Origin: a virus
Taxonomy: Duplodnaviria; Caudoviricetes
Direction: 5' to 3' (one strand)
Virus record (IMG/VR): IMGVR_UViG_3300037504_000149
DNA: 64,000 nucleotides
In this document: positions 44,111 through 59,802 of the stretch, piece after piece
How positions within the stretch are numbered: the first letter of the stretch is position 1
Layout: every line of letters starts with the position of its first letter
Notes under the pieces: model-generated
Database searches by the model: none
Seen by the model: the letters and a program-made list of their open reading frames with translations, nothing else
Told to the model about the DNA's origin: nothing
Made by a program: the position numbers and the translations under genes

Positions 44111-44157
44111 TGTACTGCCTTCTGCGTCCCCCCGAATATCTACCCCCCTCTACCTCT

Positions 44158-44336
44158 ATTTTAACATATTTTTTATTAAATGTCAAGTGTCATCTTGCTA
44201 TATTATTAAAATCGAATATAAAATAAAATATACATTTTTTTTATTATAACATATTATTTATTAAATGTCAAGTAAAATCTTTTATTTTTTTATTTTTATA
44301 ATCTTTTATTATAACATATTATTTATTAAATGTCAA
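44158..44336 (-). promoter_or_regulatory. three tandem leftward sigma70 promoters
   Basis: Minus strand: TTGACA-17-TAAAAT (44158-44186) and TTGACA-17-TATAAT (44243-44271, 44308-44336), all with TGn and AT-rich upstream sequence. Confidence 0.85.
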
Positions 44337-44640
44337 GTAAAATCTTAATTTTTTATTTATTTTTATTATTCATACTTCCCTATTTATAATAATAATATCC
44401 TTATTTATAAACTCCGTAACTCCCCTATTATCAATAAGTTATAACTGGCCCCTATCGCCACTCAAGGCATACCATACCACCCCTAGAACCGATCGGCGCT
44501 CTATGGCCCGTTATATCGATCCTGAGCGAAAATGCGTAAATACGCATATGGAGCCAATTGATATACTGTCTCAGTGTGCGCAACGTCACACCTTCCAATA
44601 AATATCGTGTATCAATAAGCCTACTTTGTGATAAAAGCCC

Positions 44641-44669
44641 TTGACAACACTAATCTTTTATGTTAGAAT
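44641..44669 (+). promoter_or_regulatory. promoter, mirror copy of the cassette reverse promoter
   Basis: TTGACA-17-TAGAAT followed by CACGTTATGAGGGG, as at 45280. Confidence 0.75.
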
Positions 44670-45201
44670 CACGTTATGAGGGGCAGTGTAGGGGTTTATA
44701 CATATACTACACTCCCCACTATTCATATACTCAATACTACAATTACAATAATGGGGAGGTGTATTCATATACTAACTAATCCTTCCCCTATATACAACAT
44801 TGAATAATAGTAATCTTAATTAGCATCGTCGCATATGTATCTTTATTCATATGCTCCACCAGACATTACCTGCTACCAGTCTATTTATAATATGAATATC
44901 AAAACTTATAATTAAGTATGTTAACACTATACTTAATTATACCATATTCGCCTATTCTAAAATGGATTTTACAGAATAATCTAATATGAATATAAGAAGA
45001 ACAGGGGGAGGGACCAGATAATTACAATATGAATATAAACAATTCCCCACTTAGGGGTCTCTATACAGGAAAAATCCCCACTGCTATATGATTATTCCTA
45101 TGTAGAGAGTCGCTCTTTCCCCACTTATTCATACTACCAGCATTCATAACATGAATAAATGCAGGTATAGCAAGGGTCTAGGGGGTGGGGAATAAATAAA
45201 A

Positions 45202-45281
45202 GTGATATAAACCTTGTACCAATAGGGTTTTATAGTGATATAAACCCTTGCCGCACTAAGGTTTATAGTGATATAAACCTT
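45202..45281. repeat. three 33-bp-period repeats containing the palindrome AAGGTTTATA-GTGA-TATAAACCTT
   Basis: GTGATATAAACC at 45202, 45235, 45268. Confidence 0.85.
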
Positions 45282-45405
45282 GACACAAAAGAAGTTTTAT
45301 GTTAGAATCACGTTATGAGGGGGAGTGTAGGGGGAGTATATATAACTATATACGTATAATCGAATATCCAGAATAAAAAAAAACCCCCGGCGATAACACC
45401 GGGGG
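45280..45405 (-). repeat. mirror-orientation cassette module (promoter, conserved spacer, terminator of the minus-strand gene)
   Basis: TTGACA-17-TAGAAT, GAGGGGGAG, ATAATCGAATAT, hairpin CCCCCGG..CCGGGGG with a T-tract on the minus strand. Confidence 0.8.
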
Positions 45406-45415
45406 AAGGGGGCGG

Positions 45416-45598
45416 CTATGCGTCGTCAAGAGCACCGCGAGCAGACCAGACGGCCTGGGCGGCCCGAACTATGGCACTGCGGGCGGCGGCGGCAGGGTCG
45501 CTGGTGAGGTGTTTGAGGGCGTCAAGGGTGTTGTATGCATCGCAAATGTCGTTGATAGCGGAAGTGAGGGCGGCGGCGGCGCGGGCAGTGTTTCTCAT
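45416..45598 (-). CDS. cassette cargo, 60-aa Ala-rich helical protein
   Basis: Has its own promoter (45649-45678 on -), GCCCC-ACC-GGGGC leader hairpin, GGGAG RBS and terminator. Confidence 0.75.
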   Translation of the reverse strand: MRNTARAAAALTSAINDICDAYNTLDALKHLTSDPAAAARSAIVRAAQAVWSARGALDDA

Positions 45599-45648
45599 GA
45601 TCTTCTCCCTTCTGCCCCGGTGGGGCGGTTGTTGATTGTTGTGAGACA

Positions 45649-45731
45649 AGTATACCATATAAACTAGAGGATTGTCAAGGGTAAAATTAAATAAAATAGT
45701 ACTTGACTTTAAGGGAGTTTTATGTTATCAT
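45649..45731. promoter_or_regulatory. back-to-back promoter pair, mirror orientation
   Basis: Minus TTGACA-18-TATACT; plus TTGACT-17-TATCAT; 24 bp between the -35 boxes. Confidence 0.8.
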
Positions 45732-46070
45732 CATGTTATGAGGGGGAGTGTAGGGGGAAGGGAGCGGGAGACGTTGAATAGTTACAATATGAATGGGGGA
45801 GTAGAGGGGAGCGGGAGATGTTGAGAGGATGTTGAATAGTTAGAATATGAATAGGGAGGAAGAAGGGGGGGTGATTATTCATATTAAGATCATTCTGAGA
45901 TTTTGCAGGGTATTTATATTATTGATATACCGTACAATCCCCCAATATACGCGCACAAAATTTTGCAACCCCCAATTTTAATTATTCATAATAATTATAT
46001 TCTACCCCCCCCCTGCTCCTTCCCCTGCTCCCGTATTCCTCGCGCTATTATAATTCTACATACCTACCAT

Positions 46071-46209
46071 AAAAGAGTTTAACATAAAACTTCCCTGAAG
46101 TCAATACCTATTTTATTCCATTTTATCCTTGACAAGTTTTCAATCCATATGGTATACTGCCTTCAGAAGATAAAAACGCCCCGGAGGGGGCATAACCTGG
46201 AAGGGAACG
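46071..46209 (+). repeat. cassette module R0 (no terminator)
   Basis: AGTCAA 46099-46104, TTGACA 46129-46134, TATACT 46153, leader hairpin, RBS. Confidence 0.9.
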
Positions 46210-46410
46210 ATGGATAAGGAAAACTTTGATGTATTTTATGCGGCGGCGCAAGCTGTAGCAACACTTAAATCAGCTCGTGCCATTGCCTGTGTCGTTGACG
46301 CTGCTGTCCGTACAAAAGAAACACGGACAGCGCTGAATAAAATCTGTGATGCGCTGAAAACGATGGAATCGGTGCGAAACAGTAACCTAGAAACAATATA
46401 TTCTCGCTAA
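46210..46410 (+). CDS. cassette cargo, 66-aa helical protein
   Basis: Lies between R0 and R1. Confidence 0.8.
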   Translation: MDKENFDVFYAAAQAVATLKSARAIACVVDAAVRTKETRTALNKICDALKTMESVRNSNLETIYSR

Positions 46411-46422
46411 ACATACTACACC

Positions 46423-46655
46423 GCCCCGCTGGAATCCAGCGGGGCTTTTCTTTATCCTGGATATTCGATTATTCTTATATCCTATTTTATATATTCCCCT
46501 TAGTCTTCCCCTTCAAACATAATGCTAACATAAAACTTACCTGAAGTCAATACCTATTTTATTCAATTTTATCCTTGACAATCTAGGAACTAGTATGATA
46601 TAATAGCTTTACAAGATTAGAAACGCCCGCAAGGCGGGCATAACAGGGAGGATAT
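46423..46655 (+). repeat. cassette module R1
   Basis: Terminator GCCCCGCTGG-AAT-CCAGCGGGGC-TTTT, spacer, AGTCAA 46545, TTGACA 46575, leader, RBS. Confidence 0.95.
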
Positions 46656-46838
46656 ATGGAACGGACAACCTATATTGTTATCGGCGGCCAGCAGGTCGGC
46701 ATCACTGGCAACCCCAACGATGACCCGCTGTCCGCCCCGGCGGCCAAGGCGGCGCTGAAGGACTATCGCGCCCGCACCGGCCGGACCGCTGTCCCTATCC
46801 GGCTGGCCAATGGGACGGTATTCTCACGGGGATTCTAG
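46656..46838 (+). CDS. cassette cargo, 60-aa protein
   Basis: GGGAGG RBS; GC-rich. Confidence 0.8.
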   Translation: MERTTYIVIGGQQVGITGNPNDDPLSAPAAKAALKDYRARTGRTAVPIRLANGTVFSRGF

Positions 46839-46846
46839 GTTATTAC

Positions 46847-47076
46847 GCCCCGCTGGAATCCAGCGGGGCTTTTCTATACCTTGTATATTCGATTATTCTT
46901 ATATCCTAATATATTCCCCTTAGTCTCCCCCTTCAAACATAATGCTAACATAAAACTTCCCTGAAGTCAAGACCTATTTTATTCCATTTTATACTTGACA
47001 ATCTAGGAATCCATATGGTATACTACTTTCAGAAGATGAAAACGCCCCGGAGGGGCAAAACTAGGGAGGGGAAAGA
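46847..47076 (+). repeat. cassette module R2
   Basis: Near-identical to R1; AGTCAA 46965, TTGACA 46995. Confidence 0.95.
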
Positions 47077-47328
47077 ATGGAGTATTTATTGCGTCTGACC
47101 CGCGCCCGATATAATGATATACCGATAGATAACATCGGGCAAGCTACGCGAATAAAGGTCAAGAGTATACAAGCCGCTAAGATAGCGGCAACAAGATGGG
47201 CGGAGCAAGTGGCAACACCAAACAAGCCCTATTGTGTCGTTATCTACACAATCGAGGGTACACCTATAATAAGAAAACACAGCTTTACTAAGAAATGGGC
47301 GAAAGCGGGAGAATTCTACTGTACCTAG
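47077..47328 (+). CDS. cassette cargo, 83-aa basic protein
   Basis: GGGAGG RBS. Confidence 0.8.
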   Translation: MEYLLRLTRARYNDIPIDNIGQATRIKVKSIQAAKIAATRWAEQVATPNKPYCVVIYTIEGTPIIRKHSFTKKWAKAGEFYCT

Positions 47329-47334
47329 CATTTA

Positions 47335-47563
47335 CCCCCGCTGGATTCCAGCGGGGCTTTTCTTTATCCTGGATATTCGATTATTCTTATATCCTAATAT
47401 ATTCCCCTTACTCTCCCCTTCAAACATAATGCTAACATAAAACTTCCCTGAAGTCAAGACCTATTTTATTCCATTTTATACTTGACACTCTAGGAACTAG
47501 TATGGTATACTACCTTCAGAAGATGAAAAGCCCGCATAGCGGGCATAACAGGAAGGGAAACGG
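47335..47563 (+). repeat. cassette module R3
   Basis: AGTCAA 47452, TTGACA 47482. Confidence 0.95.
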
Positions 47564-47896
47564 ATGATTTACGAAGTTATTACTCGCGATGAACTCTATC
47601 ACCGTCTGAAGGGGTATAACGACGTATTCTCGTATGAGGGGGCTCGGATAATATACGATTATATTACCGAACTCGGCGATACGGAGCTAGACGTTCCCGA
47701 CATTCACGGCGGGTTTACGGAGTATTCCGATGCTGAGGAAGCGGCAGAGGACATTCTCCCCCCTGATGAGGTCGAGGAAATGCGGAAAGAATTCGCGGAA
47801 TTCCCCGGCCTTGATGATGAATGCTGGAAGGCGCTGGAGCGGGCCGGTGAAACAGTGCTGGGCTCGGCGTCCGGGCCTGTCATTATCGCGGAATAG
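47564..47896 (+). CDS. cassette cargo, 110-aa strongly acidic protein
   Basis: D/E-rich; single gene between R3 and R4. Confidence 0.8.
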   Translation: MIYEVITRDELYHRLKGYNDVFSYEGARIIYDYITELGDTELDVPDIHGGFTEYSDAEEAAEDILPPDEVEEMRKEFAEFPGLDDECWKALERAGETVLGSASGPVIIAE

Positions 47897-47903
47897 TTTT
47901 ATC

Positions 47904-48130
47904 GCCCCGCTGGTATTCCAGCGGGGCTTTTCTATACCTTGTATATTCGATTATTCTTATATATATTCCCCTTACACTTCCCCTTCAAACATAATGCTAA
48001 CATAAAAGTTCCCTGAAGTCAATACCTATTTTATTTAATTTTACACTTGACAATCATTTAATCCGTATGATATAATACCTTTACAAGATTGAAACGCCCC
48101 TACAGGGGCATAACAGGAAAGGGAAGGAAT
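47904..48130 (+). repeat. cassette module R4
   Basis: AGTCAA 48017, TTGACA 48047. Confidence 0.95.
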
Positions 48131-48568
48131 ATGATTTACACCAATCTTGATGAAGCACGCGCCGCGAAGGCGGCGAGCGTAGCAAAGGCGCGAGAGCTGG
48201 AGTCCCGCGCTATCGAAGGTGAGGGGCCTACTTCCACCGAAGCCGAAGAAGTCAGGCATGAACGGTGGATCAAGGAAAACACCCTGGTTGTTACCAGGCA
48301 CGCAGGCCTGGTCGACTACATCAAAGAAGAGTTCATTTATCCCGCGTACCTGGCATCAGACGTGGTATTCTCTCACGTTGAGCAAAAGGACGTGGAGGGG
48401 AAGCACGTGGTTGGCATTTTGCCGCTCCACCTGGCCGCATTGGCAGATAAGGTGACGGTCATCCCCCTGAACCTGACCCCGGCGGATCGAGGTCAGGAAC
48501 TTTCCGCCGAACGGGTGCGGGAAGTGGCCGGTGACCCGGTAACCTACCGGGTCGAGCAGGTGAATTAG
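48131..48568 (+). CDS. Csx16-like protein (putative cyclic-oligoadenylate ring nuclease)
   Basis: VTRHAG...VVGILPLHLAA...L.LTPADRGQELSAE matches the recalled Csx16 pattern SRHPG...IGTLP.HLAA...RG.ELS. Start moved to 48131. Confidence 0.75.
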   Translation: MIYTNLDEARAAKAASVAKARELESRAIEGEGPTSTEAEEVRHERWIKENTLVVTRHAGLVDYIKEEFIYPAYLASDVVFSHVEQKDVEGKHVVGILPLHLAALADKVTVIPLNLTPADRGQELSAERVREVAGDPVTYRVEQVN

Positions 48569-48576
48569 CTCTCACT

Positions 48577-48707
48577 GCCCCGCTGGATTCCAGCGGGGCT
48601 TTTCTATACCTTGTATATTCGATTATTCTTATATCCTATTATATATATATATTACCCTAGTCTCCCCCTTCAAACATAATGCTAACATAAAACTTCCCTG
48701 AAGTCAA
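48577..48707 (+). repeat. cassette module R5 (terminator and reverse promoter only)
   Basis: Similarity ends just after AGTCAA 48702-48707. Confidence 0.9.
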
Positions 48708-48903
48708 GAACTATTTTAATGTATCTAAAACAAGGCAGCACAAGGGTATATTTTAGTCGCCCGTAGAAGTGATATAACGGGCCGTAGATGGCCGTAAAGG
48801 GTGGCAGAGTGGTATAGTATACTTATCTATTGAACGGCCTTAAAATCGCCCTACGGGCATTATATGGAATATCAGGAAAGTTTAATATAGATAAAGTTTT
48901 CTC

Positions 48904-49136
48904 TTGACAGGGAGCAAAGGTTATGATATACTTCCCCCGTAAGATTGAGAAATAGATACCTGAAACGCCCCCCAGAGGGGGCATAAAGGAAAGGGGAATA
49001 AATGAAGGGTTGACAGCGATGGGGAAGTATGATATACTTCCCCCGTAAGATTGAAGATGTAGTAAACGCCCCTACGGGGCACAAAGGAAAGGGGCTAAAA
49101 TTAGGGGTTGACAAGGGTGGGGAAGTATGATATAAT
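48904..49136 (+). promoter_or_regulatory. three tandem promoters, the first two with leader hairpin and RBS but no gene
   Basis: TTGACA-17-TATACT at 48904 and 49010; TTGACA-17-TATAAT at 49108; ~100-bp period. Confidence 0.85.
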
Positions 49137-49145
49137 CCCCTTGAT

Positions 49146-49389
49146 GAGCGTTACCTATAACACAGTATCATTTATTCACTAGAGTTAACAAGGGAGGGAG
49201 GCGCAGGATGAAACACTATCAGCGTAACATCCTGCTGGAACCCGGTTAAATCATCGGGGCGGAAAGTAAGTCGGCCCCGCCCCGGCTTTCCCGGGCCTTA
49301 ACATGGGATACACCGTAGACCTATTGTGATCAACGGTAAATCCGTTGTGACGCTCCCCCGGTCCCTAAACTATGGGGACCGGGGATTTT
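49146..49389 (+). ncRNA. candidate structured ncRNA A with its own terminator
   Basis: End pairing GAGCGTTAC/GTGACGCTC, four internal hairpins, terminator stem 49356-49384. Only a 13-aa ORF inside. Confidence 0.6.
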
Positions 49390-49430
49390 AGTATAGTTAG
49401 TTTATATTATAAGACTGCCGGACTGCCCAC

Positions 49431-49569
49431 AAAAGAGTTTAACATAAAAGTTACCTGAAGTCAATACCTATTTTATTTAATTTTACGCTTGACATTCTAG
49501 GAACTAGTATGATATAATAGCTTTACAAGATTAAAACGCCCCGGAACGGGGCATAACAGGGAGGGAACG
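49431..49569 (+). repeat. cassette module R6 (no terminator, same 5' end as R0)
   Basis: AAAAGAGTTTAACATAAAA..., AGTCAA 49459, TTGACA 49489. Confidence 0.9.
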
Positions 49570-49782
49570 GTGTTTCACTTAAAATTCTACGACGGGACGA
49601 CCGGGAGTGCCGGTTGTTACGGGAGTTTTGATACGCTCGCCGACGCTATGGCTGAGTGTGATACCGTCCCCGGTTGCTCCGGGGAGTCAGGGTATGAGTC
49701 ATCCTCGTTGTATATCGAGGATGACACAGGAGAAGTTGTCGCATCCCTAGGCGCATATTGCGCCGGTTGGGTTGTGGGCTAG
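49570..49782 (+). CDS. cassette cargo, 70-aa acidic protein
   Basis: GGGAGG RBS, GTG start. Confidence 0.75.
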   Translation: MFHLKFYDGTTGSAGCYGSFDTLADAMAECDTVPGCSGESGYESSSLYIEDDTGEVVASLGAYCAGWVVG

Positions 49783-49789
49783 ATTTACG

Positions 49790-49962
49790 GCCCCGCTGAT
49801 ATTCTCAGCGGGGCTTTTCTTTTACCTTGTATATTCGATTATTCTTATATATATCCCCTTACTCTCCCCCTTCAAACATAATGATAACATAAAACTTTCC
49901 TGAAGTCAACCCCTAAATTTCCCTATTAAATCCTTGACATCTATCTGCTGTTTTGATACAAT
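49790..49962 (+). repeat. cassette module R7 (variant; drives an RNA, no leader or RBS)
   Basis: Terminator with compensatory TGA/TCA change; AGTCAA 49904; TTGACA 49934-17-TACAAT. Confidence 0.9.
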
Positions 49963-49969
49963 ACTCGTC

Positions 49970-50102
49970 GAGGTGGCAGCCGCAGTAGGCGCAGGGAAGT
50001 TGAGACCCCTAGACGTAGGACTCCGGTCCCTGTATCCCCGCCGATCACGGGGTGCATGCGGGTGTCGGGATTGTCCGGGCAATCCCCAATCCCGCCCACC
50101 TT
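49970..50102 (+). ncRNA. candidate structured ncRNA B occupying a cassette slot
   Basis: GAGGTGG/CCACCTT closing stem with four internal stems; lies between promoter and terminator; no RBS or ATG-started ORF of meaningful length. Confidence 0.7.
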
Positions 50103-50113
50103 ACATGAAACGG

Positions 50114-50348
50114 CCCCCGCTGGATTCCAGCGGGGCTTTTCTTTTACCTTGTATATTCGATTATTCTTATATCCTAATATATTCCCCTTAGTCTCCCCCT
50201 TCAAACATAATGCTAACATAAAAGTTACCTGAAGTCAATACCTATTTTATTCAATTTTATACTTGACAAGCTATAAACTAGTATGATATACTATCCCCAC
50301 AAGATTAGAAACGCCCCCGGAGGGGGCATAACAAAGGAAGGGGAAGAA
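50114..50348 (+). repeat. cassette module R8
   Basis: AGTCAA 50233, TTGACA 50263. Confidence 0.95.
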
Positions 50349-50861
50349 ATGGGCTGGGATGGTAGGTATATGGATAACACTGTGAAAGCCCGTCAACGAG
50401 TGATGATGGAGACTGTCGGACTGATAGACTTGTCGGTCCGGGGCAATGAAGGGTACGCTGCAGTGAAACATCCCGATATGGAGGCCGTGTTTTGTATGAT
50501 CTTCATTTTCCGGTATTCTGAAGGGGAATTGTGTACAAAGACCTGTACGGAGCTTGACGGCCCGTTTTGTTGGAATTGCCCGCAACGTATTATGAAACAG
50601 CTCACTGCGCCGCTGAACGAGCGGGCGGCGGATTGGCGCGATGCTTGTCGGCTCGCTGCGAAGTTGCGCAAAGCGCGTTATGTTTATCTGGAGCGGTCGC
50701 CGCATGGCACTGACATACGCTTAGTGGAAAAGGTGGCGAATGCTCGGAGTGTTTACCGTGAGATGTATACCGGTGAACTATGGCGGCTGCGCGTTAACAC
50801 TATGATGCACTACGGCGCTCGTCCAGTGGATAAGGACGAAGCCGAGGCGATGTTACGTTAG
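50349..50861 (+). CDS. DUF6927-like protein
   Basis: MGW...YAAV...E.DGP...NCP.RIM..LT.....A.DWR..C. Start moved to 50349. Confidence 0.65.
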   Translation: MGWDGRYMDNTVKARQRVMMETVGLIDLSVRGNEGYAAVKHPDMEAVFCMIFIFRYSEGELCTKTCTELDGPFCWNCPQRIMKQLTAPLNERAADWRDACRLAAKLRKARYVYLERSPHGTDIRLVEKVANARSVYREMYTGELWRLRVNTMMHYGARPVDKDEAEAMLR

Positions 50862-50868
50862 ATTTACC

Positions 50869-51088
50869 GCCCCGCTGGAATCCAGCGGGGCTTTTCTTTA
50901 TCCTTTATATTCAATTATTCTTATATATATATTCCCCTTAGTCTTCCCCTTCAAACATAATGCTAACATAAAACTTCCCTGAAGTCAATACCTATTTTAT
51001 CCAATTTTACACTTGACAAGCTATAAACTAGTATGATATAATAGCTTTACAAGATTGATAGCAGTTAACATTAAAAGGGGAGGGCTCC
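50869..51088 (+). repeat. cassette module R9
   Basis: AGTCAA 50983, TTGACA 51013. Confidence 0.9.
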
Positions 51089-51958
51089 ATGCGTGTTGAT
51101 AAGAAAAAGGAAAAGGTACTCACACACTTAGAGGATATTTTATCGGCGCTGAAGAATGACCCGGCGGCGCTGAAGCGCTTGTCGTGGATTAAACCGTGGA
51201 GTAACCCACCCCGTAACTTGGCCGGGCGTCAATATAACGGTGGTAATGTACATATTCTGAACTTTGCCTCCGTCGTTAGTAGTTATAAGCATAATAGGTG
51301 GGGAACGTTCAATCAATATAAGAAGTATGGGGCCAGCATTATTAAGGGCTCCAGTGCGACGCCTATCTATTACTATAATGTAAAGAAATACACTAAAGAA
51401 GATGAGAATGGAGAGGAAAAGGAATATACTTATTATGTGTTTAAGTATTTTAATCTTTTCAATATCGCACAAACGACATTGGAGATTGAGCGGCTCCCCG
51501 GCGTCGAGTATAAAGAAGTAGAATATACCACACCGGAACGAATCCGGAGGGGATATTGTGACAATGGCGGCCCGGAGTATCAGGAATCCGGTGACCGTGC
51601 CTTTTATCGGCCCGGAGGGGATTTAGTCTGCTTGCCGCCCCGCGAAACATTCCATTCATCAGCGGAGTATGCCAGTACGCTATATCATGAACTGGTGCAT
51701 AGCACCGGGCATGAAAAGCGGCTGGACCGGGGATTTAGCTTGTCTCGGGGCGGGGAAGGGTACGCCCTAGAGGAACTGGTCGCAGAGACTGGAGCGCTAA
51801 TCCTTTGTGACCGGAGCGGTATTAACCCGGACGTGAATAACTTCAAGGCGTATATTGCTAGCTGGCTTCAGGCGGTAAAATCTGACCAGCGTTACAAAAC
51901 TTTCTCCGCATTGTCACAAGCGGAGAAGGCCGTTGACTACATTCTAGGGGAAAGGTAG
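51089..51958 (+). CDS. ardC: ArdC-family antirestriction protein (ssDNA-binding domain plus zincin-like domain)
   Basis: WIKPW, Y.G.N, WGTFNQ, FNIAQT, AFY.P..D.V.LP, HELVHSTGHEKRLDR, YALEELVAE, YIASWL. Confidence 0.92.
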   Translation: MRVDKKKEKVLTHLEDILSALKNDPAALKRLSWIKPWSNPPRNLAGRQYNGGNVHILNFASVVSSYKHNRWGTFNQYKKYGASIIKGSSATPIYYYNVKKYTKEDENGEEKEYTYYVFKYFNLFNIAQTTLEIERLPGVEYKEVEYTTPERIRRGYCDNGGPEYQESGDRAFYRPGGDLVCLPPRETFHSSAEYASTLYHELVHSTGHEKRLDRGFSLSRGGEGYALEELVAETGALILCDRSGINPDVNNFKAYIASWLQAVKSDQRYKTFSALSQAEKAVDYILGER

Positions 51959-51996
51959 ACTTTCCCCTTGACATTATAGAGCATTTTATGGTACTA
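51947..51996 (+). promoter_or_regulatory. palindrome fused to a promoter (type-2 module, copy 1)
   Basis: GGGGAAAG-GTAGA-CTTTCCCC immediately followed by TTGACA 51968-17-TACTAT. Confidence 0.75.
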
Positions 51997-52039
51997 TTGC
52001 CTTAGAAGATTGAAAAACAAAACAAGGGAAGGGGAAAAC

Positions 52040-52612
52040 ATGGCCACGGGAAACTTTCACTATCATACGAATTTGTGTTATGCTTTGCCTGATGACGGTC
52101 CAAACGTATTAGAAGATGCGTTAGATCGTATAAAGGTCGAAGCGGCCCGTATGGGGTTGACGCTGGAAAAGTACCTAGCACCGGAAAAATTCGATACAAA
52201 ATCATACGGTCGGCACTATTATACTCACCTTGCTGAGTATAGTGTAGAACAGCCGTATTATGGCGGGTTCATTACTGTTTCTGCTGGTATTGGCGTCCGT
52301 GCTGGATACTATACTGGTGGATGCTATGACTGCTGCATTATTGCAGAGTTTTACGGCAGTAAGATAGCTGATAGTCACTACGATGACTCCTATACGGATG
52401 TAGATGAGATTGAGGAACTTTTGCTAGAATGTAGCGATGTACCAAAGGGTTTTATTCAGCACGCTGCAATTAAGGTGCGGGATAAAGCCGATGAACTGAT
52501 TGATGAGGTAGAAGATACGACAAACCGCTTACTCGCTGCCGCTGCTGAAGTGAAACTGGCTTGTCTAGGCTCGGCCAGTAACGGCGAGACGTTTTATCGG
52601 AAGGTGGATTAG
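52040..52612 (+). CDS. hypothetical protein
   Basis: Start moved to MATGNF after AGGGAAGGGG. Confidence 0.75.
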   Translation: MATGNFHYHTNLCYALPDDGPNVLEDALDRIKVEAARMGLTLEKYLAPEKFDTKSYGRHYYTHLAEYSVEQPYYGGFITVSAGIGVRAGYYTGGCYDCCIIAEFYGSKIADSHYDDSYTDVDEIEELLLECSDVPKGFIQHAAIKVRDKADELIDEVEDTTNRLLAAAAEVKLACLGSASNGETFYRKVD

Positions 52613-52620
52613 GTTAGATA

Positions 52621-52723
52621 GGGGAAAGCATATGCTTTCCCCTTGACTTTCACGTTGTCTTATGGTACAGTTGTCTTAGAAGATTAAACAACGCCCCGTC
52701 GGGGCATAACTGGGAGGGAAAAG
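52621..52723 (+). promoter_or_regulatory. type-2 module, copy 2
   Basis: 22-bp perfect palindrome GGGGAAAGCATATGCTTTCCCC, TTGACT, leader GCCCC-GTC-GGGGC-ATAAC, RBS. Confidence 0.8.
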
Positions 52724-53353
52724 ATGAAACTGTACAAGCGTAACGGCAAGATGTACCTTGCCGTCGAAGGACAAGAGATTGAGATAGCCGACATTCGAGA
52801 CGCTGTTAAGGCGCTCGGCGGTACGGTCGAAACGTCAACCTATCGCAAAGTCGAGCTGTTTCATGATTACGATTGTCCTAATCCGCTGGAGGGTGATTCG
52901 GAAGTTTTCATCTATCATAAGCGGAATCGAGAGTTTGAAGTCGGTCAAGATATTGAAGCGGCTGGCGGCTTCGAGGGCGTCCGAGAAGCGCATCCCGATG
53001 CTGTTATCGCGCCCCTGTACGCATACGTGCATTCTGGCGTGTGCTTCAGTACCAAGTACACCTATCCTTTCACTTGTCAATGGGATGCTGGATTGACGGG
53101 TTGCATCGTCGGTCCGAGTAAAGAAGCGATTCTTGGCGCTATCGAGGAATTGAATCATTATGTAGCAGGGAACTGCTACGGATATGAGGTGCAAGATGAA
53201 TGGGGTGAGGTGCTGGATTGTTGTGGCGGTTTCTGGGGATATATCGACGACGAACTTTTGAAGGAATATGCGATGGCGCATTGCCCCGACCCGGAGAACA
53301 TGGACGTTGTTTTTAGCGACCCCTTCGGCCGAGAAGAGAAGGTTGAGTGGTAG
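52724..53353 (+). CDS. acidic hypothetical protein
   Basis: GGGAGG RBS. Confidence 0.75.
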   Translation: MKLYKRNGKMYLAVEGQEIEIADIRDAVKALGGTVETSTYRKVELFHDYDCPNPLEGDSEVFIYHKRNREFEVGQDIEAAGGFEGVREAHPDAVIAPLYAYVHSGVCFSTKYTYPFTCQWDAGLTGCIVGPSKEAILGAIEELNHYVAGNCYGYEVQDEWGEVLDCCGGFWGYIDDELLKEYAMAHCPDPENMDVVFSDPFGREEKVEW

Positions 53354-53361
53354 GTAGGATA

Positions 53362-53412
53362 GGGGAAAGCATATGCTTTCCCCTTGACTTTACCGTTATC
53401 TTGTGGTATACT
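53362..53412 (+). promoter_or_regulatory. type-2 module, copy 3
   Basis: Same 22-bp palindrome, then TTGACT-17-TATACT. Confidence 0.8.
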
Positions 53413-53463
53413 TGAGGCAACGTAGCATTGAGAGTAACGTTACATCAAAGGGAAGGAAAAAAG

Positions 53464-53610
53464 ATGATTATGTCACTGAAGATGCGTGCGGAGGCCGCCG
53501 AGAAAAAGGCCGCCGAGTATGCGGCTCGCGATCAGAATGAGGCCAGTGCGGAAATGCACCGCCGCGCCGAGGCTATCCGACGCCGGATGGACCGGGAAGC
53601 GGGGAGGTAA
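53464..53610 (+). CDS. 48-aa helical protein
   Basis: Start moved to follow AGGGAAGG. Confidence 0.6.
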   Translation: MIMSLKMRAEAAEKKAAEYAARDQNEASAEMHRRAEAIRRRMDREAGR

Positions 53611-53612
53611 AG

Positions 53613-54089
53613 ATGCCTTGCACCGAATGTCAAAAAGGACAGTGTGAATGGTATGACGCTGTTATGAGCGGCCTTGCTACGCATTCCGACTTTCCGTTTA
53701 TGGACGCTCGCGGGCGCTGTCTACGCAATGCTGACCCCGATGAACTGTTGCGCCGGGGGATCGACCCGGTATACGATGAATGCTCGGAGTACGAATATGT
53801 CCCCCACGATTGGGAATATCCTGATGGCATGGGGACGCAGGTCCGTGTCCGCTGTTACGATAACGGTGGGCAGACTGTTGACCGGTATACTATTCTGTAT
53901 CAGTATATCGGTGATAAGCATATACTTAACCCGGTATGGGCATTGGCAGTCGGCGCTACGCCGCGTCACTTTTGTCAGCATACCGCTGCCGTTGCGGGTG
54001 ATCACTTGGGCAATCCTATTGCCTTTGATGACCTGCCCGAATCGGTCCAGCGGGCGGCGCTGAAGGATACGCTGAAGGATACCAAGTAA
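53613..54089 (+). CDS. hypothetical protein
   Basis: GGAGG RBS; hairpin 54095-54116 follows. Confidence 0.7.
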   Translation: MPCTECQKGQCEWYDAVMSGLATHSDFPFMDARGRCLRNADPDELLRRGIDPVYDECSEYEYVPHDWEYPDGMGTQVRVRCYDNGGQTVDRYTILYQYIGDKHILNPVWALAVGATPRHFCQHTAAVAGDHLGNPIAFDDLPESVQRAALKDTLKDTK

Positions 54090-54145
54090 CGATATGGCGG
54101 TCCTCTATGGGCCGCCTTAACTATTCTTTTACAGAAAGGATAACA

Positions 54146-54721
54146 ATGTTTACCGACTTCAACGATATATTCGATAACTACCAAGAGGACGACTTGTGGT
54201 TGGATCCGGTAGATGAGAATGAGATATATTTCGGTACGCTGATCAATACGTTTCCGGGCACTGAAGCGGTGGTACATCAGCTTGATGCGGCGTCACACTT
54301 GGGATATATTCAGTATCAGAATACTGAGAAGGAAGTATTCTTTAGTATTGCTACTCTGAAGGAATTGGTCCCTGTGGACAATTTCTCTGGAGAAGATGAA
54401 TGGAAAGAAGAGCTAGAGGATACCTTGAAGGTGTGGGGTGGCCGCATTGACGGCGATGAAGTCTACCTTGTATTGCGAGCGTATGACGTTATTTATACGC
54501 CGCTGGAGCGAATCAAAGAGAAGTTGGATGCCGGGATGTATTCCGCAGAGCGGCTTGAATTTTGGTGCTGGCAAGCCTATAGTGTTGCCACCGTTGACGG
54601 GTGGGTTAGCATCCGTAACGGCCGGTTCAAGCATTCTCGACAAGAGATGATGCAGGAACTGGTGGACATTATCGAAGGTCGCGTTACGCTTGATGATATG
54701 CGGCATGGGGAACGAAACTAA
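54146..54721 (+). CDS. acidic hypothetical protein
   Basis: Start moved to MFTDFN after AAGGA. Confidence 0.7.
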   Translation: MFTDFNDIFDNYQEDDLWLDPVDENEIYFGTLINTFPGTEAVVHQLDAASHLGYIQYQNTEKEVFFSIATLKELVPVDNFSGEDEWKEELEDTLKVWGGRIDGDEVYLVLRAYDVIYTPLERIKEKLDAGMYSAERLEFWCWQAYSVATVDGWVSIRNGRFKHSRQEMMQELVDIIEGRVTLDDMRHGERN

Positions 54722-54759
54722 AAGGATGAGTATGACATTACTTACAAGAAAGGATAGCA

Positions 54760-55038
54760 ATGGGTATCAGTAATTATATGGATAACCGCGAGAAGTGGCT
54801 TAAAAACCTTAAAGCCGGTTCGCTAGTTTGGTGCGCCGAGCTGGGCCGAGGCGGATGCTGGAAGGCTCAGATTAACGATGTTACAGAGCGTACTATTGAA
54901 GTGCAAGCCGATGCGTGGCGTACTGTCGTAGTGGACAGACAGACTGGAATGCAACGTGACGGCACGTTGCGTATCTACCAAAGTATGCCACGTAACATTA
55001 TGAGCCCAGTACAGGAAGTGCGGGCTAAATCATACTAA
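54760..55038 (+). CDS. hypothetical protein
   Basis: AAGGA RBS. Confidence 0.65.
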   Translation: MGISNYMDNREKWLKNLKAGSLVWCAELGRGGCWKAQINDVTERTIEVQADAWRTVVVDRQTGMQRDGTLRIYQSMPRNIMSPVQEVRAKSY

Positions 55039-55054
55039 ACACAGGGAGATAGTT

Positions 55055-55477
55055 ATGAGTGCGTACATGGTCAGTCCGACGACGATTGAGAATATCTTGG
55101 GGTACTTCGAAAGTAAGCTACCTGATACGGTTAAAGATGTGCTAAGTGAGTATGATTTGGGACTTAGTTGGAGACGACTAGGTCGTGAGTTGGTAGCTAT
55201 GAATGCCCGTGCTATTATGGCGCGGTATGATGAAGACCCGTTAGGTAAAGATTGGCAGAGTTGGATGCCTGCACCTGACATATACGATAATCTACGGCCT
55301 AATACTGCCGTGACGCAGATACAGGCGGTTAAATCACTAAAGTGCTACTTGTATCAGTGTAGTGAGGGTGATGTACCTAAAGAGAAGTTGTATAATATGC
55401 TAAAGAAGATAGAGGGCGCGACAATTCGCGCAATTGTCGAGAATTCACAAGAATATCAAGATGCAGATTGGGGATAG
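55055..55477 (+). CDS. hypothetical protein
   Basis: GGGAG RBS; motif LKCYLYQCSEG. Confidence 0.7.
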   Translation: MSAYMVSPTTIENILGYFESKLPDTVKDVLSEYDLGLSWRRLGRELVAMNARAIMARYDEDPLGKDWQSWMPAPDIYDNLRPNTAVTQIQAVKSLKCYLYQCSEGDVPKEKLYNMLKKIEGATIRAIVENSQEYQDADWG

Positions 55478-55559
55478 ATGAGCTTACTAGGTTACATTGG
55501 GTTAACAGTGCTTATAGGTATAACTTGCTGGATTTACCAGTACAGTTTGGAGGTTAAAG

Positions 55560-56075
55560 ATGAGTAACATTATTAACGTAGTAAACAAACCTAACATTTA
55601 CCTAGTTGGCATTACGTTAGGAACGGGAGATTATTTTACGCATAGCGGTAGGTATGCGGAAATCGGAGACCTGAAGCAATACCGTCAGTCTTTACTTGAC
55701 GATTACCATAATGGAGCTACTTATTTAACGTACATTTATAGTGTAGATACTTTGGCAACGATCCCCCGTCATTACTATACCGGACCCTATCTTATTCAGT
55801 CAGTCGAAGATTTAGAGGATAACTTGGATTATCTGATGGGATTGGGTATGGTATGGGGCAAGTATGGTAGTGACTTTCTACTGATGGAGAGCGACGAGAA
55901 TGCCGAAGCATGGGCTGACGCGACGGCCCTTCGCATATCTGATGAATCGCCGTATGACGACGATACTAAAGAGCTGCTACGGGAAGTGCTGTCTAATGCT
56001 CTGCTTAATAATCCTGGGCAGCTTATGCGGTTGATTGGGACTGAGATTATTGAAGAGAATTACTTTAATGAGTAA
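55560..56075 (+). CDS. hypothetical protein
   Basis: GGAGG RBS. Confidence 0.7.
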   Translation: MSNIINVVNKPNIYLVGITLGTGDYFTHSGRYAEIGDLKQYRQSLLDDYHNGATYLTYIYSVDTLATIPRHYYTGPYLIQSVEDLEDNLDYLMGLGMVWGKYGSDFLLMESDENAEAWADATALRISDESPYDDDTKELLREVLSNALLNNPGQLMRLIGTEIIEENYFNE

Positions 56076-56083
56076 CTTTACAC

Positions 56084-56113
56084 TTGACAACCTACCATAC
56101 TCTATGGTAGAAT
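56084..56113 (+). promoter_or_regulatory. sigma70 promoter with internal inverted repeat
   Basis: TTGACA-18-TAGAAT; CTACCATA-CTC-TATGGTAG. Confidence 0.75.
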
Positions 56114-56151
56114 ATGGGTAGAAACGATAAACAAAGGAAGGGGAAAGGGAT

Positions 56152-56646
56152 ATGGCTTGCAGATATACCAAGAAAGGTAAAGAGCTATTCGGCAAACACA
56201 TTCGCCGCTCGCTAGATGCTGCGAAGGTGCCCGTGCCACGTTACAACGTCATTCATGGCATCGTGAACGGCGATAGTGACAGTGGCGTCATTGCGGCATT
56301 GAGTAATGGCGTCCAGTGGCAGGTGACTAACTGCCCCGAAGACTTCGAGGAAGGTACACTGGACGATTACGTCCAGCTTCTGGAGTACGCTAAGGATAAC
56401 ATCGCCGCTGTTACCTATCTGGCGGAAATGCTGGATGTATACTTGGGCGATGAAGTGTGCTTGGTGCCGTCACATCAGACGATACATGCTATCACGCACT
56501 ATGGTATAGGGTACTACAGAACCTGGGCCGAGGAAAATCAGGCTCGGGAGTGGGTAAAGGGAACTGTTAGTGAGTATGCCCATTTACTGCGTACTTATAT
56601 GCAGCCTGAGCTTGTGGAGTACCTTATAGATTCACTTAAGCGATAA
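56152..56646 (+). CDS. hypothetical protein
   Basis: GGAAGGGG RBS. Confidence 0.7.
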   Translation: MACRYTKKGKELFGKHIRRSLDAAKVPVPRYNVIHGIVNGDSDSGVIAALSNGVQWQVTNCPEDFEEGTLDDYVQLLEYAKDNIAAVTYLAEMLDVYLGDEVCLVPSHQTIHAITHYGIGYYRTWAEENQAREWVKGTVSEYAHLLRTYMQPELVEYLIDSLKR

Positions 56647-56665
56647 CTGTCTAGGAGGCGTTACT

Positions 56666-57001
56666 ATGAGTCGGTATTACCGTATGAGTTTCGAGATCAC
56701 GGGGCATGACGATAAGAAGCAGGAAGCGATCTGCTCCGTTGTGAGCGATGCCTACGGCATCGATATGTTCCCTGATGGTAAGGGAATCTACGGTAGCGGG
56801 GAGTATACTCTCGCTGGTGGACAGACTGAGGATGAGTTCGCTCAGGAGGCTACGCTGCTGGTATGGAAGGCCAACGGCAAGCCTTGCCGAGTAAGTATTA
56901 TGCAGTATTATTTGGAAGACCCGCCGTGTACACTATATGAATACACTGAGGACGATGGGGCTATGCTGTCCTTGTATAAAGCCCAACAGAAGGAGAGTTG
57001 A
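56666..57001 (+). CDS. hypothetical protein
   Basis: AGGAGG RBS. Confidence 0.7.
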   Translation: MSRYYRMSFEITGHDDKKQEAICSVVSDAYGIDMFPDGKGIYGSGEYTLAGGQTEDEFAQEATLLVWKANGKPCRVSIMQYYLEDPPCTLYEYTEDDGAMLSLYKAQQKES

Positions 57002-57002
57002 T

Positions 57003-57380
57003 ATGATTCATATCTTACCTATTAAGTTTGTGTGGTATAACACTACGTCGCATGGGTACTGTTGGACTACCGATGAAGGATACCCTAATGGGTATCAAGT
57101 GTGCCAAAACACTATCGCAGGTATCCGCGACATCGTTTTAGAAGACCCCGACATCACATGCAATCGCGGCATGGACCCACTGTTGGACAAAGTATTTTGC
57201 CCTGATTGTCTTGATGATTTTCTGCCTCACGTTTTACCGGATATGTGCGCTGATACCGGATTACGGAACGTACTGGAATCCGTTTCAGCAAGTTATAAGG
57301 TTGTCATTCACTTGGCCGCTGATGAAATTGTTATCACAGTGGGGGAACTTCAGGACGAGATGGCTGAGACAGAAAGTTGA
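57003..57380 (+). CDS. hypothetical protein
   Basis: Start moved to MIHILP after AAGGAG. Confidence 0.65.
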   Translation: MIHILPIKFVWYNTTSHGYCWTTDEGYPNGYQVCQNTIAGIRDIVLEDPDITCNRGMDPLLDKVFCPDCLDDFLPHVLPDMCADTGLRNVLESVSASYKVVIHLAADEIVITVGELQDEMAETES

Positions 57381-57405
57381 CTTTACGATGAATGACTGCT
57401 ATACT
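57377..57405 (+). promoter_or_regulatory. sigma70 promoter
   Basis: TTGACT-17-TATACT with TGn. Confidence 0.8.
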
Positions 57406-57410
57406 GTTTA

Positions 57411-57572
57411 CGGTATCCGCTAGGTTCCCCTTCCCTACCTGGCGGCGGGCGCAGGGGACGAGATGCCCTGTCGGGTGCGCCGTATCTACCCGAGACCTAA
57501 ATACGGTAGCGACCTGTCGCGCTGAGTCGGCAGGAAGTATGGGGGAGTGGCCCTCCCCACTCCCCCTAAACT
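57411..57572 (+). ncRNA. candidate structured RNA C (sRNA or 5' leader)
   Basis: Five hairpins plus a CCGTAT/ATACGG pseudoknot between the promoter and the RBS of the clamp-like gene. Confidence 0.6.
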
Positions 57573-57592
57573 TTCCTAAAGGAGATGTATGT

Positions 57593-58801: not shown

Positions 58802-58805
58802 AAAC

Positions 58806-58834
58806 TTGACATTTACCTTATCGTGTGGTATTAT
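58806..58834 (+). promoter_or_regulatory. sigma70 promoter
   Basis: TTGACA-17-TATTAT with TGn. Confidence 0.75.
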
Positions 58835-58863
58835 AGAGTTGACCTACTAAGGAAGGGAAGGTT

Positions 58864-59520: not shown

Positions 59521-59530
59521 GAAGGTAGTT

Positions 59531-59785: not shown

Positions 59786-59802
59786 AGGAGGGAAGGATTA
59801 CG

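Follow-up and report, generated by a model that had tools for sequence, protein, structure and literature searches.

The window, a 64-kb stretch of DNA (38.6% GC) from a giant uncultured phage of ~230 kb, contains an array of ~10 single-gene units, each with a module of ~230 bp, that opens what is presumably the early region. Ten copies of the module (R0-R9; eight full and two half, some without certain parts) lie at 46.07-51.09 kb in direct orientation, repeating every 0.4-1.5 kb, and one inverted cassette lies at 45.28-45.73 kb. The slots hold an ArdC protein, a Csx16-family protein, seven orphan proteins, and two structured RNAs. Cassette order and number rest on one short-read assembly through the 230-bp repeats, because the independent Logan assemblies L023, L024, and L025 break exactly within modules, the repeats being longer than short reads. 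The features are as follows.

45280-45731, minus strand: inverted cassette (parts in plus-strand coordinates) with facing promoter TTGACA-17-TAGAAT (45280-45308), 20-bp box (45348-45367), terminator (45405-45384, minus strand), cargo c0 of 60 aa (45598-45416, minus strand), leader hairpin (45612-45628), cassette promoter (45678-45649, minus strand), and back-to-back promoter (45703-45731, plus strand)
46072-46209, plus strand: half module R0; reverse promoter 46104-46076, AT tract, forward promoter 46129-46158, leader hairpin 46176-46193, RBS
46210-46410, plus strand: cargo c1, orphan, 66 aa, GC3 0.36
46419-46655, plus strand: full module R1; terminator 46423-46445, box 46461-46480, reverse promoter 46550-46522, forward promoter 46575-46604, leader hairpin 46624-46636
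46656-46838, plus strand: cargo c2, orphan, 60 aa, GC3 0.77
46843-47076, plus strand: full module R2; terminator 46847-46869, box 46885-46904, reverse promoter 46970-46942, forward promoter 46995-47024, hairpin 47043-47057
47077-47328, plus strand: cargo c3, orphan, 83 aa
47331-47563, plus strand: full module R3; terminator 47336-47356, box 47373-47392, reverse promoter 47457-47429, forward promoter 47482-47511, hairpin 47530-47544
47564-47896, plus strand: cargo c4, acidic orphan, 110 aa
47901-48130, plus strand: full module R4; terminator 47904-47927, box 47943-47962, reverse promoter 48022-47994, forward promoter 48047-48076, hairpin ~48087-48104
48131-48568, plus strand: cargo c5, 145 aa; Csx16-family domain at residues 53-141, preceded by a ~50-aa helical N-terminal extension
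48573-48731, plus strand: truncated module R5; terminator 48577-48599, box 48615-48634, reverse promoter 48707-48679, forward promoter absent
48904-49140, plus strand: three tandem forward promoters, at 48904, 49010, and 49108
49143-49392, plus strand: non-coding cargo, a structured transcript of ~250 nt that includes a 13-codon ORF and has a terminator of its own (49356-49384); z -5.3
49432-49569, plus strand: half module R6; reverse promoter 49464-49436, forward promoter 49489-49518, hairpin 49536-49554
49570-49782, plus strand: cargo c6, Cys-rich orphan, 70 aa, GTG start
49786-49962, plus strand: module R7; terminator 49789-49815, box 49831-49850, reverse promoter 49909-49881, forward promoter 49934-49962; leader hairpin and RBS absent
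49969-50105, plus strand: non-coding cargo, a ~135-nt structured RNA; z -3.2
50107-50348, plus strand: full module R8; terminator 50115-50135, box 50153-50172, reverse promoter 50238-50210, forward promoter 50263-50292, hairpin ~50304-50324
50349-50861, plus strand: cargo c8, 170 aa, Cys cluster; matches phrog_21047 (function unknown)
50865-51088, plus strand: module R9; terminator 50869-50891, box (one mismatch) 50907-50926, reverse promoter 50988-50960, forward promoter 51013-51042; leader hairpin absent
51089-51958, plus strand: cargo c9, ArdC-like, 289 aa; ArdcN and zincin MPTase-PolyVal domains, HELVH motif present
51945-52723, plus strand: short second module type, a stem-loop GGGGAAAG-N6-CTTTCCCC abutting the -35 hexamer TTGACA/TTGACT
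52040-52612: gene d1, between the first two stem-loops of the second type

The repeat is genuine and restricted to the array stretch. Within the window, the 24-mer AACATAAAACTTCCCTGAAGTCAA is found ten times on the plus strand between 46081 and 50988 with at most two mismatches and once inverted at 45703 (0 expected in shuffles), and the 20-mer ATATTCGATTATTCTTATAT is found seven times exactly, once with one mismatch, and once inverted at 45348 with two mismatches (0.02 expected). Counts so far above those of shuffles, together with an alignment of all copies, bear out the repeated module of the original prediction. The alignment also reproduces the proposed order of parts, i.e., terminator, 20-mer, C-rich box, reverse promoter, AT-rich tract, forward promoter, AAGAT, GC hairpin, ATAAC, and RBS in a full module. 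The order stands, but the copies are not all alike: R0 and R6 are halves without terminator, 20-mer, and C-box, R5 has no forward promoter, and R9, which precedes ArdC, has no leader hairpin. R7 has neither leader hairpin nor RBS because its cargo is an RNA. For the first ORF of the inverted cassette, the start is most likely at 45598 (60 aa) instead of 45658, as previously assigned. Of the three tandem promoters, those at 48904 and 49010 are read as empty slots, because only a leader hairpin and an RBS come after them; in one such slot, a 3-codon ORF extends into the -35 hexamer that follows.

By its promoter, RBS, and terminator calls, each slot looks like the self-contained transcription unit that had been proposed. 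The forward promoter is a consensus extended -10 sigma70 promoter whose AT-rich tract is shared with the minus-strand promoter; 16 forward sites match 11-12 of 12 consensus positions, all with TG. Promoter-like sites (59 found vs. 20.5 expected) cluster at 44.1-53.4 kb and are rare across the 44 kb upstream. Nine forward terminators were called, and the terminator hairpin was called in eight modules (stem 9-11 bp, -22.6 kcal/mol). The array is presumably the start of the early region, transcribed by host RNA polymerase as monocistronic cassettes. Each transcript would start at the near-consensus promoter with its AT-rich upstream tract, would carry at its 5' end an A-tract, a GC hairpin that probably stabilises this end, and a strong Shine-Dalgarno sequence, and would be closed by the intrinsic terminator 3-15 nt past the stop codon.

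A second, opposing layer of transcription is predicted. Ten minus-strand promoter sites have the form TTGACT-17-TAnnnT with TG, and the one in each module would fire back through the 20-bp box and the upstream cargo. On the minus strand, the leader hairpins have the form of terminators, and therefore each cargo may be covered by antisense RNA, i.e., by a regulated transcript, one per cargo, that would end at the leader hairpin. That this hairpin may double as a minus-strand terminator is a point missed by the original prediction. The hairpin is also present without a facing reverse promoter (d2, 83-aa gene of the relative described below); thus, the terminator role is not needed to explain it. 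Antisense transcription over early regions is known from PAK_P3 and from the antisense promoter of Phikmvvirus, where a promoter that lies on the non-coding strand and faces early genes is proposed to limit early expression later in infection (PMC10914365). The module promoter is likewise directed from the non-coding strand against early genes, whereas here an antisense promoter is predicted for every gene, each with its own terminator and repressor-type site.

The 20-bp box, which had also been overlooked as a regulatory site, matches the operator of an autoregulator of the ArsR family that is conserved in Acidobacteriota. In five soil contigs, the exact 20-mer precedes an ArsR-family gene by 6-8 nt, and 78 of 80 Acidobacteriota loci have ATATTCGAA-N3-TCGAATAT upstream of the regulator orthologue; at 22.6 bits, the phage box compares with a median of 23.8 for real sites. 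Operator-like sites in the window are confined to the nine modules and position 44200 (0.4 expected by chance), and no ArsR homologue is encoded in these 64 kb. The box would probably be bound by a host ArsR-family protein or a phage copy, acting as a roadblock or insulator. Two observations, the operator match and the cargo GC, point to a putative Acidobacteriota host; the 38.6% GC of the phage, however, is much lower than the GC content of Acidobacteriota. SulP or DabA genes follow the gene of the regulator, which controls its own expression, and the array might accordingly be pictured as a decoy in which at least nine operator copies, multiplied by genome replication, would titrate the host regulator and derepress its SulP/DabA regulon, the cargo being secondary. 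An operator match as good as that of real sites, restricted to the modules, would suit such a sponge. Nonetheless, the box is phased to the terminator (15 nt past it in eight of nine copies), which points to a local transcriptional role, and derepressed anion or carbon transporters offer no obvious benefit to a phage, making a sponge quite improbable.

The box is also an imperfect palindrome present at every cassette boundary, and the array shares with integron cassette arrays a linear series of single unrelated genes, a recurring boundary element, and accessory or adaptive cargo. A true integron-like system would use the palindrome as the site of a recombinase encoded elsewhere in the 230-kb genome, of which 64 kb were inspected. 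Integron cassettes, however, are promoterless and moved by IntI at attC, whereas every cassette here has its own promoter and terminator. Moreover, the box fits the ArsR operator consensus, breakpoints in the relative fall at the -35 region and at the RBS, away from the box, and neither a recombinase or integrase nor an attC-like site was found among the ~45 reading frames scanned in the window. We consider such a system highly improbable, and the earlier label "integron-like" a poor one.

Recombination-driven turnover of cassettes is indirectly suggested by several features. Because the ~230-bp repeat is in direct orientation, the module is a candidate substrate for phage RecA and Mre11/Rad50-type recombination, and cassettes could therefore be deleted, duplicated, inverted, or exchanged between co-infecting relatives. 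As originally envisaged, the phage's own genes could serve, since RecA, a Metallophos (Mre11/SbcD-like) protein, and an SbcC/Rad50-like protein are encoded within the window. Among six full modules, 286 of 528 informative-site pairs fail the four-gamete test, and two 5'-half types and two 3'-half types occur in all four combinations (R1-R4); a neighbour-incompatibility (PHI-like) test was not significant (p 0.29), and the mosaicism could partly reflect recurrent mutation in short repeats. The one relative found (L024, ~86% nucleotide identity) has a different cassette between ArdC and d2, in the region of 51945-52723, with breakpoints at CTTTCCCCTTGACA. It also has an extra unit of a promoter and a 98-aa gene, with a duplicated promoter on its flanks; at the corresponding site of the window (56077-56147), the promoter is single. 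These differences are seen beside the array, just downstream, rather than inside it because the contigs of the relative break in the module.

The same comparison bears on a rival account, in which the array serves expression and insulation alone: the module recurs because all early genes require one strong and insulated control region, exchange between copies homogenises them incidentally, and the array is evolutionarily stable and no platform for shuffling. The R9-ArdC junction, the sole junction compared, is kept in the relative (92% identity), which is collinear over it and ~11 kb downstream; gene conversion alone could explain the similarity of the modules, and the PHI-like result is in keeping with this account. 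Set against it are whole cassettes that differ between relatives at promoter repeats directly beside the array, the empty slots, the inverted cassette, and the half modules. Furthermore, cargo GC3 is 0.36-0.77, compared with 0.17-0.28 in core genes, in line with the GC-rich cargo noted earlier in an AT-rich genome, and the orphans are absent from the samples of the relative by gene calls. A stable array thus seems unlikely to us. The shuffling originally proposed is indirectly favoured by the mosaics, the two empty slots, the inverted cassette, and the neighbouring cassette differences, but not by the conserved junction. The reading that we regard as probable is an early-region array of monocistronic, PeSL-like recombining cassettes with operator and antisense layers.

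The array is of the PeSL kind, a longer relative and not an integron. PeSLs are promoter-early stem-loop mobile regulatory cassettes of the T4-type phages RB49 and phi1 (Arbiol et al. 2010, PMC2839356), a precedent that had been aptly chosen. In both cases, small orphan genes in a plastic region are preceded by a repeated unit made of a sigma70-consensus promoter, the AT-rich tract upstream of it, and a terminator stem-loop, and a cassette lies between two copies in one phage where the other has one copy (cf. ORFan192, PMC2839356). The short second module type has the PeSL layout itself, with the GGGGAAAG/CTTTCCCC stem-loop abutting the -35 hexamer at 51948 and 52620; this stem-loop recurs near 53361. 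Unlike PeSLs (~100 bp), the module is ~230 bp, and its terminator lies ~125 bp upstream of the -35 hexamer. Its additional parts are the divergent promoter on the minus strand, the 20-bp site of repressor type, the C-rich box, and a fixed leader hairpin at the 5' end; non-coding RNAs also fill slots. Exchange of cassettes would follow the PeSL mechanism in a longer, more elaborate form. The host-takeover and pre-early blocks of large virulent phages, e.g., the SPO1 terminal-redundancy module and the T5 pre-early region, similarly combine dense small genes with strong host-type promoters, ribosome sites, and terminators, and lie to one side of the genome, beside a large non-coding region. To our knowledge, they are not built from one near-identical 230-bp module, and we know of no description of a per-gene antisense promoter or host operator in them.

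The cargo is a mixed accessory set. In clustering at 90%, c1, c2, c4, and c5 are each a singleton; 5.8 billion proteins include no close homologue of c5 or c8, and none was found for c8 besides its phrog_21047 match; the closest homologue of c4 (49% identity) is on an unrelated contig, and the ~135-nt RNA belongs to no Rfam family. Two of nine protein cargoes fall in counter-defence families (ArdC and Csx16 ring nucleases), in agreement with the anti-defence-type cargo first suggested, no function being assigned to the other seven; the ArdC call is upheld by both domains of c9 and the Csx16 call by PF09652 (E 8e-17). Csx16, a ring nuclease specific for cA4, is rare in phages, with 2 of 28,114 genomes encoding it (10.1101/2024.09.24.614671). 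The phage protein retains all family-invariant residues, with at most 60% identity to any other member and a score below the TIGR02620 cut-off. Like the viral ring nucleases that act as anti-CRISPRs (AcrIII-1/Crn2, phage Crn4b, and phage Csx16/Csx20; 10.1101/2024.09.24.614671, PMC12830947), it is a small stand-alone phage protein of a cA4-degrading family behind a strong promoter; unlike them, it has the helical N-terminal extension, and its activity is putative. Together, ArdC and the putative Csx16-type cA4 ring nuclease would blunt restriction and type III CRISPR signalling.

The cassettes at 46071-51088 are self-contained units of predicted promoter, leader, gene and terminator, separated by copies R0-R9 of a module of ~230 bp. 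A repeat search of the window recovered families of 7-8 copies, each copy 76-178 nt long, at a spacing of 420-2216 bp. A 24-mer from the reverse-promoter core has ten plus-strand copies (46081-50988) and one inverted copy (45703); the 20-mer ATATTCGATTATTCTTATAT, here called the 20-bp box, is found in the window in seven exact copies, one copy with a single mismatch and one inverted copy; and a terminator hairpin, with a GC stem of 9-11 bp followed by TTTTCT, is present in eight modules. Less than one occurrence of each of these three elements is expected by chance, and all three are confined to the array within the 64-kb window. The repeated module and the mirror-image parts described in the original prediction are thus real, their copies being far above chance, and an alignment of all copies with MAFFT reproduced the proposed order of parts, i.e., terminator, 20-bp box, C-rich box, reverse promoter, AT tract, forward promoter, leader hairpin and ribosome-binding site (RBS). 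Some copies are incomplete: R0 and R6 are halves, and R5, R7 and R9 lack some parts.

Incomplete copies of the module and the inverted cassette
R0 and R6, plus strand: half modules (MAFFT alignment)
R5, plus strand: forward promoter lost
R7, plus strand: without leader hairpin and without RBS; the cargo is an RNA
R9, plus strand: without leader hairpin
45280-45731, inverted cassette: mirror image of module parts flanking a 60-aa gene on the minus strand

The forward promoters read, in every module, TTGACA-17/18-TATAAT/TATACT with a TG element, and an AT tract of 24 bp precedes the -35 hexamer; in a consensus scan they matched 11-12 of 12 consensus positions, and all have the TG-extended -10. 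At a fixed distance of 24 bp behind the forward -35 hexamer lie ten minus-strand sites of the form TTGACT-17-TAnnnT, again all with TG, and TAGCAT or TATCAT in eight of the ten. The reverse promoter is a recurring phage element rather than a chance match, because promoters of this type, in which the first ~30 transcribed bases are likewise G-rich and the same, recur on the plus strand at 44641, 45280 and 45703. Nine forward terminators were called in the consensus scan, and the forward terminator folds at -22.6 kcal/mol, compared with -9 to -14 kcal/mol for the leader hairpins. In the minus-strand reading, a U-rich tract comes after every leader hairpin, and minus-strand terminators were called at six of the hairpins. 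The hairpin is nonetheless probably a sense-mRNA element in the first place, since it is present without a facing reverse promoter at d2, a gene downstream of the ArdC gene, and at an 83-aa gene of a relative. Two further readings were considered, namely that the C-rich, G-poor stretch past each terminator would be a Rho-utilisation site and that the reverse leader, rich in G, would be a tandem ribosome-binding site. The three further plus-strand promoters (TTGACA/TTGACT-17-TAGAAT/TATCAT; regions 44641-44810, 45280-45360 and 45703-45830) have an ATG 6 nt past the -10, and their open reading frames, of 43, 14 and 28 codons, respectively, all start with MRGSVG(G). Messages from these promoters could be leaderless, and the shared peptide may merely reflect the repeated DNA.

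When the whole window was scanned with a stricter regular expression, consensus promoters were dense at 44.1-53.4 kb, sparser up to 63.5 kb and almost absent from the 44 kb upstream; the long ORFs of the window are all on the plus strand. Because of this packing of promoters, the orientation of the ORFs and the 1.8-kb non-coding hub that precedes the array, we infer that the array marks the start of the region transcribed by the host polymerase. The hub (44150-46070, just upstream of the array) contains three 65-bp AT-rich repeats, each with a left-facing consensus promoter (44336, 44271 and 44186), eight of the nine copies of TATTCATAT in the window, three 33-bp repeats (TTTATAGTGATATAAACC), G-rich boxes and an operator-like site at 44200; an origin of replication, one end of the genome or a hub for regulation are conceivable roles. 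The window also encodes a tRNA-Trp at 32424-32746 and, at 63501-63929, a tmRNA (137.9 bits) whose tag was read as ENAVPLAA; in front of each stands a consensus promoter, of which there are few outside the array.

Several features of the window point to recombination between modules. In six full modules, the four-gamete test fails for 286 of 528 pairs of informative sites, and the alignment of R1-R4 reveals two types of terminator-proximal half and two of promoter-proximal half in all four combinations, as expected with crossovers in the conserved middle of the module, each half moving with its own cargo. A neighbour-based permutation test for mosaicism on the same six modules was not significant (p 0.29), and therefore the mosaic tracts must be very short or some sites must be recurrent changes. 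At 48904-49107, two promoter-leader-RBS units stand without a gene, their ends fused to the following -35 hexamer, and one cassette of the array is inverted. The phage itself carries the RecA, Metallophos (Mre11/SbcD-like) and SbcC/Rad50-like proteins on which the original prediction had drawn, all three at 1.1-5.6 kb of the window.

The parent contig of the window is 229,864 bp long, and its sole relative in the protein collection is represented by Logan contig L024 (13.6 kb) and its twin L025 (1.2 kb), which are ~86% identical to 50956-62954 of the window. A further Logan piece, L023 from SRR12689834, is 100% identical to the window. No near-identical DNA was found in 50,697 phage records, the 24-mer has no match in IMG/VR, and exact-protein look-ups of the flanking genes gave no match. 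ArdC matches in IMG/VR were rejected as relatives of the array phage, as they are at most 36% identical. L024 and L025 both start within a module upstream of ArdC, so the relative has modules too. The differences in cassettes map to promoter units just downstream of the array. In the relative, the interval from ArdC to d2 is occupied by a module-type promoter, a leader hairpin and the 83-aa membrane-like gene, whereas the window has the gene d1 there; the promoter of d1 in the window is that of d2 in the relative, and the breakpoints fall at CTTTCCCCTTGACA. The relative also has an added promoter and a 98-aa gene, with a copy of another promoter on either side; the window has that promoter once only (56077-56147). 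ORFan192 of phages RB49 and phi1 is a case of the same kind (PMC2839356). Whole cassettes that differ downstream of ArdC lend indirect support to turnover by module recombination, as originally proposed; R9-ArdC, the one array junction that can be compared, is conserved. Another gene of the relative, of 87 aa (L024 3264-3527), is cut to ~30 nt between two similar RBSs in the window (54730-54760); the loss is a deletion at RBS repeats, not at promoters. A cREC_REC (cyclic-phosphate processing receiver) protein at 60049-60597 is conserved in the relative (L024 9223-9690) and, alongside the Csx16-like gene in the array, may have a bearing on signalling by cyclic nucleotides.

Among known systems, the nearest counterpart is the PeSL of T4-type phages, which likewise combines a sigma70-consensus promoter, an AT tract and a stem-loop terminator in one repeated unit (PMC2839356). 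However, the present module is longer, has three extra functional-looking parts and differs in layout from the five PeSL subclasses. A short second type of module, in which the stem-loop GGGGAAAG-N6-CTTTCCCC adjoins the -35, occurs at 51948-51975, 52620-52648 and 53361-53390 of the window and at L024 1333-1360; the layout of those at 51948 and 52620, with the stem-loop on the -35, does fit PeSL subclasses, and the cassette breakpoints relative to L024 fall at these short modules. The integron-like label of the original prediction is less apt. Integron cassettes are promoterless and share a common Pc, whereas each cassette of the array has its own consensus promoter and terminator; because of this and because the observed breakpoints lie at promoters, the array is most probably not an integron. 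No recombinase family, IntI-type included, was found among the ~45 window ORFs scanned with Pfam or PHROGs, and the box at the cassette boundaries matches an ArsR operator. Other phages have antisense promoters that target early regions (PMC10914365), but an arrangement with one for each gene, as predicted here, is not known from them.

The 20-bp box lies 15 nt past the terminator stem in eight of nine copies and, from the coordinates, 30-44 nt from the reverse promoter. In a metagenome scan, ten contigs had the exact 20-mer; in five of these, the start codon of a ~110-aa gene follows it at 6-8 nt, and in one further contig it precedes a flavoprotein gene. Acidobacterial homologues of the ~110-aa gene (60-75% identical) belong to the ArsR family (HTH_20 and HTH_5 in Pfam), and nearly all of 80 homologues from species genomes come from Acidobacteriota, namely Acidobacteriaceae, Bryobacteraceae and other Terriglobia. 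The regulator has no cysteine, and the next gene encodes a SulP-family transporter or DabA. Of the 80 loci, 78 have a site ATATTCGAA-N3-TCGAATAT at most 80 nt upstream of the regulator gene. With a weight matrix built from the sites of these 78 loci, the phage box scores 22.6 bits, compared with a median of 23.8 (range 13.9-29.3) for the real sites; above-threshold sites in the window are limited to nine modules and position 44200, whereas shuffles give 0.4. We therefore read the 20-bp box as the predicted binding site of a host-type ArsR-family repressor, and the host as probably an acidobacterium. A tblastn search with the ArsR protein found no homologue of the regulator encoded in the window. 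The exact 20-mer had no match in 185,579 species genomes, and the operator consensus gave 34 single sites in IMG/VR, about the chance number by a rough estimate, and no arrays. In the IMG/VR motif search, the 20-mer occurred in one unrelated 47.7-kb contig only (L001/L002, IMGVR_UViG_3300016476_001127), probably a temperate phage, in which the exact box and a GC hairpin are 20 nt apart and which also has a consensus promoter and similar G-rich boxes (GGGGGTAGAGGGGGG); this phage may share its host or regulator with the array phage. In Acidobacteriaceae bacterium KBS 96 (L059 231-1172), an ArdC gene lies directly upstream of the ArsR-family regulator and operator; with only 30% identity to the phage ArdC, this adjacency was dismissed as probably coincidental.

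Among the cargo, Pfam profiles upheld the original calls of ArdC and Csx16. The ArdC protein matches ArdcN (PF08401, 1.4e-20), a zincin domain (PF18818, 7e-34) and phrog_7245 (1.9e-61), and its translation contains HELVH, i.e., the HExxH metallopeptidase motif. The 145-aa Csx16-like protein scores 61.6 bits against Cas_VVA1548 (PF09652; cut-off 25) over profile positions 2-90 of 91 and keeps all 13 invariant columns of a 19-member alignment (TRH, LPLHLAA, RG), but reaches only 23.2 bits against the stricter NCBIfam model TIGR02620 (cut-off 46.35). Its AlphaFold model (pLDDT 83) had no significant Foldseek match in PDB, and its VIA matches cover mostly the N-terminal helical hairpin. Csx16 is a cA4-specific ring nuclease, as established biochemically for cellular Csx16 only, and occurs in 2 of 28,114 phage genomes (10.1101/2024.09.24.614671); viral ring nucleases are anti-CRISPRs (10.1101/2024.09.24.614671, PMC12830947). 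The position of a Csx16-type gene inside a predicted early array that also contains ArdC supports a putative anti-CRISPR use.

The seven other cargo proteins, of 60-170 aa, gave no informative family in Pfam, PHROGs or NCBIfam. An Atlas search with cargo gene c8 was uninformative, an exhaustive HMMER search with c4 returned six weak relatives, none in a similar context, and the similarity of c0, the gene of the inverted cassette, to c1 extends over 18 residues only. At 90% identity, c1, c2, c4 and the Csx16-like c5 are singleton clusters, and c5 and c8 are without a close homologue; this is a weak hint that the array of the relative has other genes, as short contigs may miss gene calls. Two structured RNAs were also seen, at 49143-49392 (fold z -5.3; served by three tandem promoters and containing a 13-codon ORF behind a strong RBS) and at 49969-50105 (fold z -3.2). 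Rfam gave nothing above threshold in the array, both RNAs included, and its weak matches are all terminators. The GC-rich character ascribed to the cargo was confirmed: its GC3 is 0.36-0.77 vs. 0.17-0.28 in the replication genes, and that of the downstream early genes is raised too (0.42-0.58). The cargo values fit acquisition from GC-richer genomes. Whether the array is enriched in counter-defence functions appears to us evenly balanced.

It is likely, from the sequence and one fragmentary relative on which the analysis is based, that the units are early and monocistronic and that, as with PeSLs, homologous recombination between the modules drives their turnover. It is conceivable, at somewhat short of an even chance, that an ArsR-family protein would bind the 20-bp box and form a roadblock or an insulator there. 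That the reverse promoters would yield antisense RNA over the upstream cargo, ending at the leader hairpin, seems slightly less likely still. Quite improbable is the fullest model, in which the antisense arm between the convergent promoters would be gated by a hijacked host ArsR-family repressor, giving each gene of the shuffled array a timer driven by copy number. In such a timer, cassettes would be insulated from their neighbours, and the antisense RNA polymerase blocked, by repressor sitting 15 nt past the sense terminator; once replication had raised the operator copies above the repressor, antisense transcription would shut off the whole counter-defence set.

Of value are the match to a host operator, the convergent layout at each gene, a Csx16 of a kind rare in phages and the list of counter-defence candidates in a probable Acidobacteriota jumbo phage. 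If it works as read, the module would be a compact, portable plug for the strong, insulated and possibly time-limited expression of any inserted gene. The cargo narrows the choice of candidate genes and RNAs for counter-defence in a very little-known phage group that probably infects Acidobacteriota, and the operator match offers a concrete host prediction together with a test case for the borrowing of a host repressor site by a phage. Finally, the array would extend PeSL-type shuffling past the T4-type coliphages.
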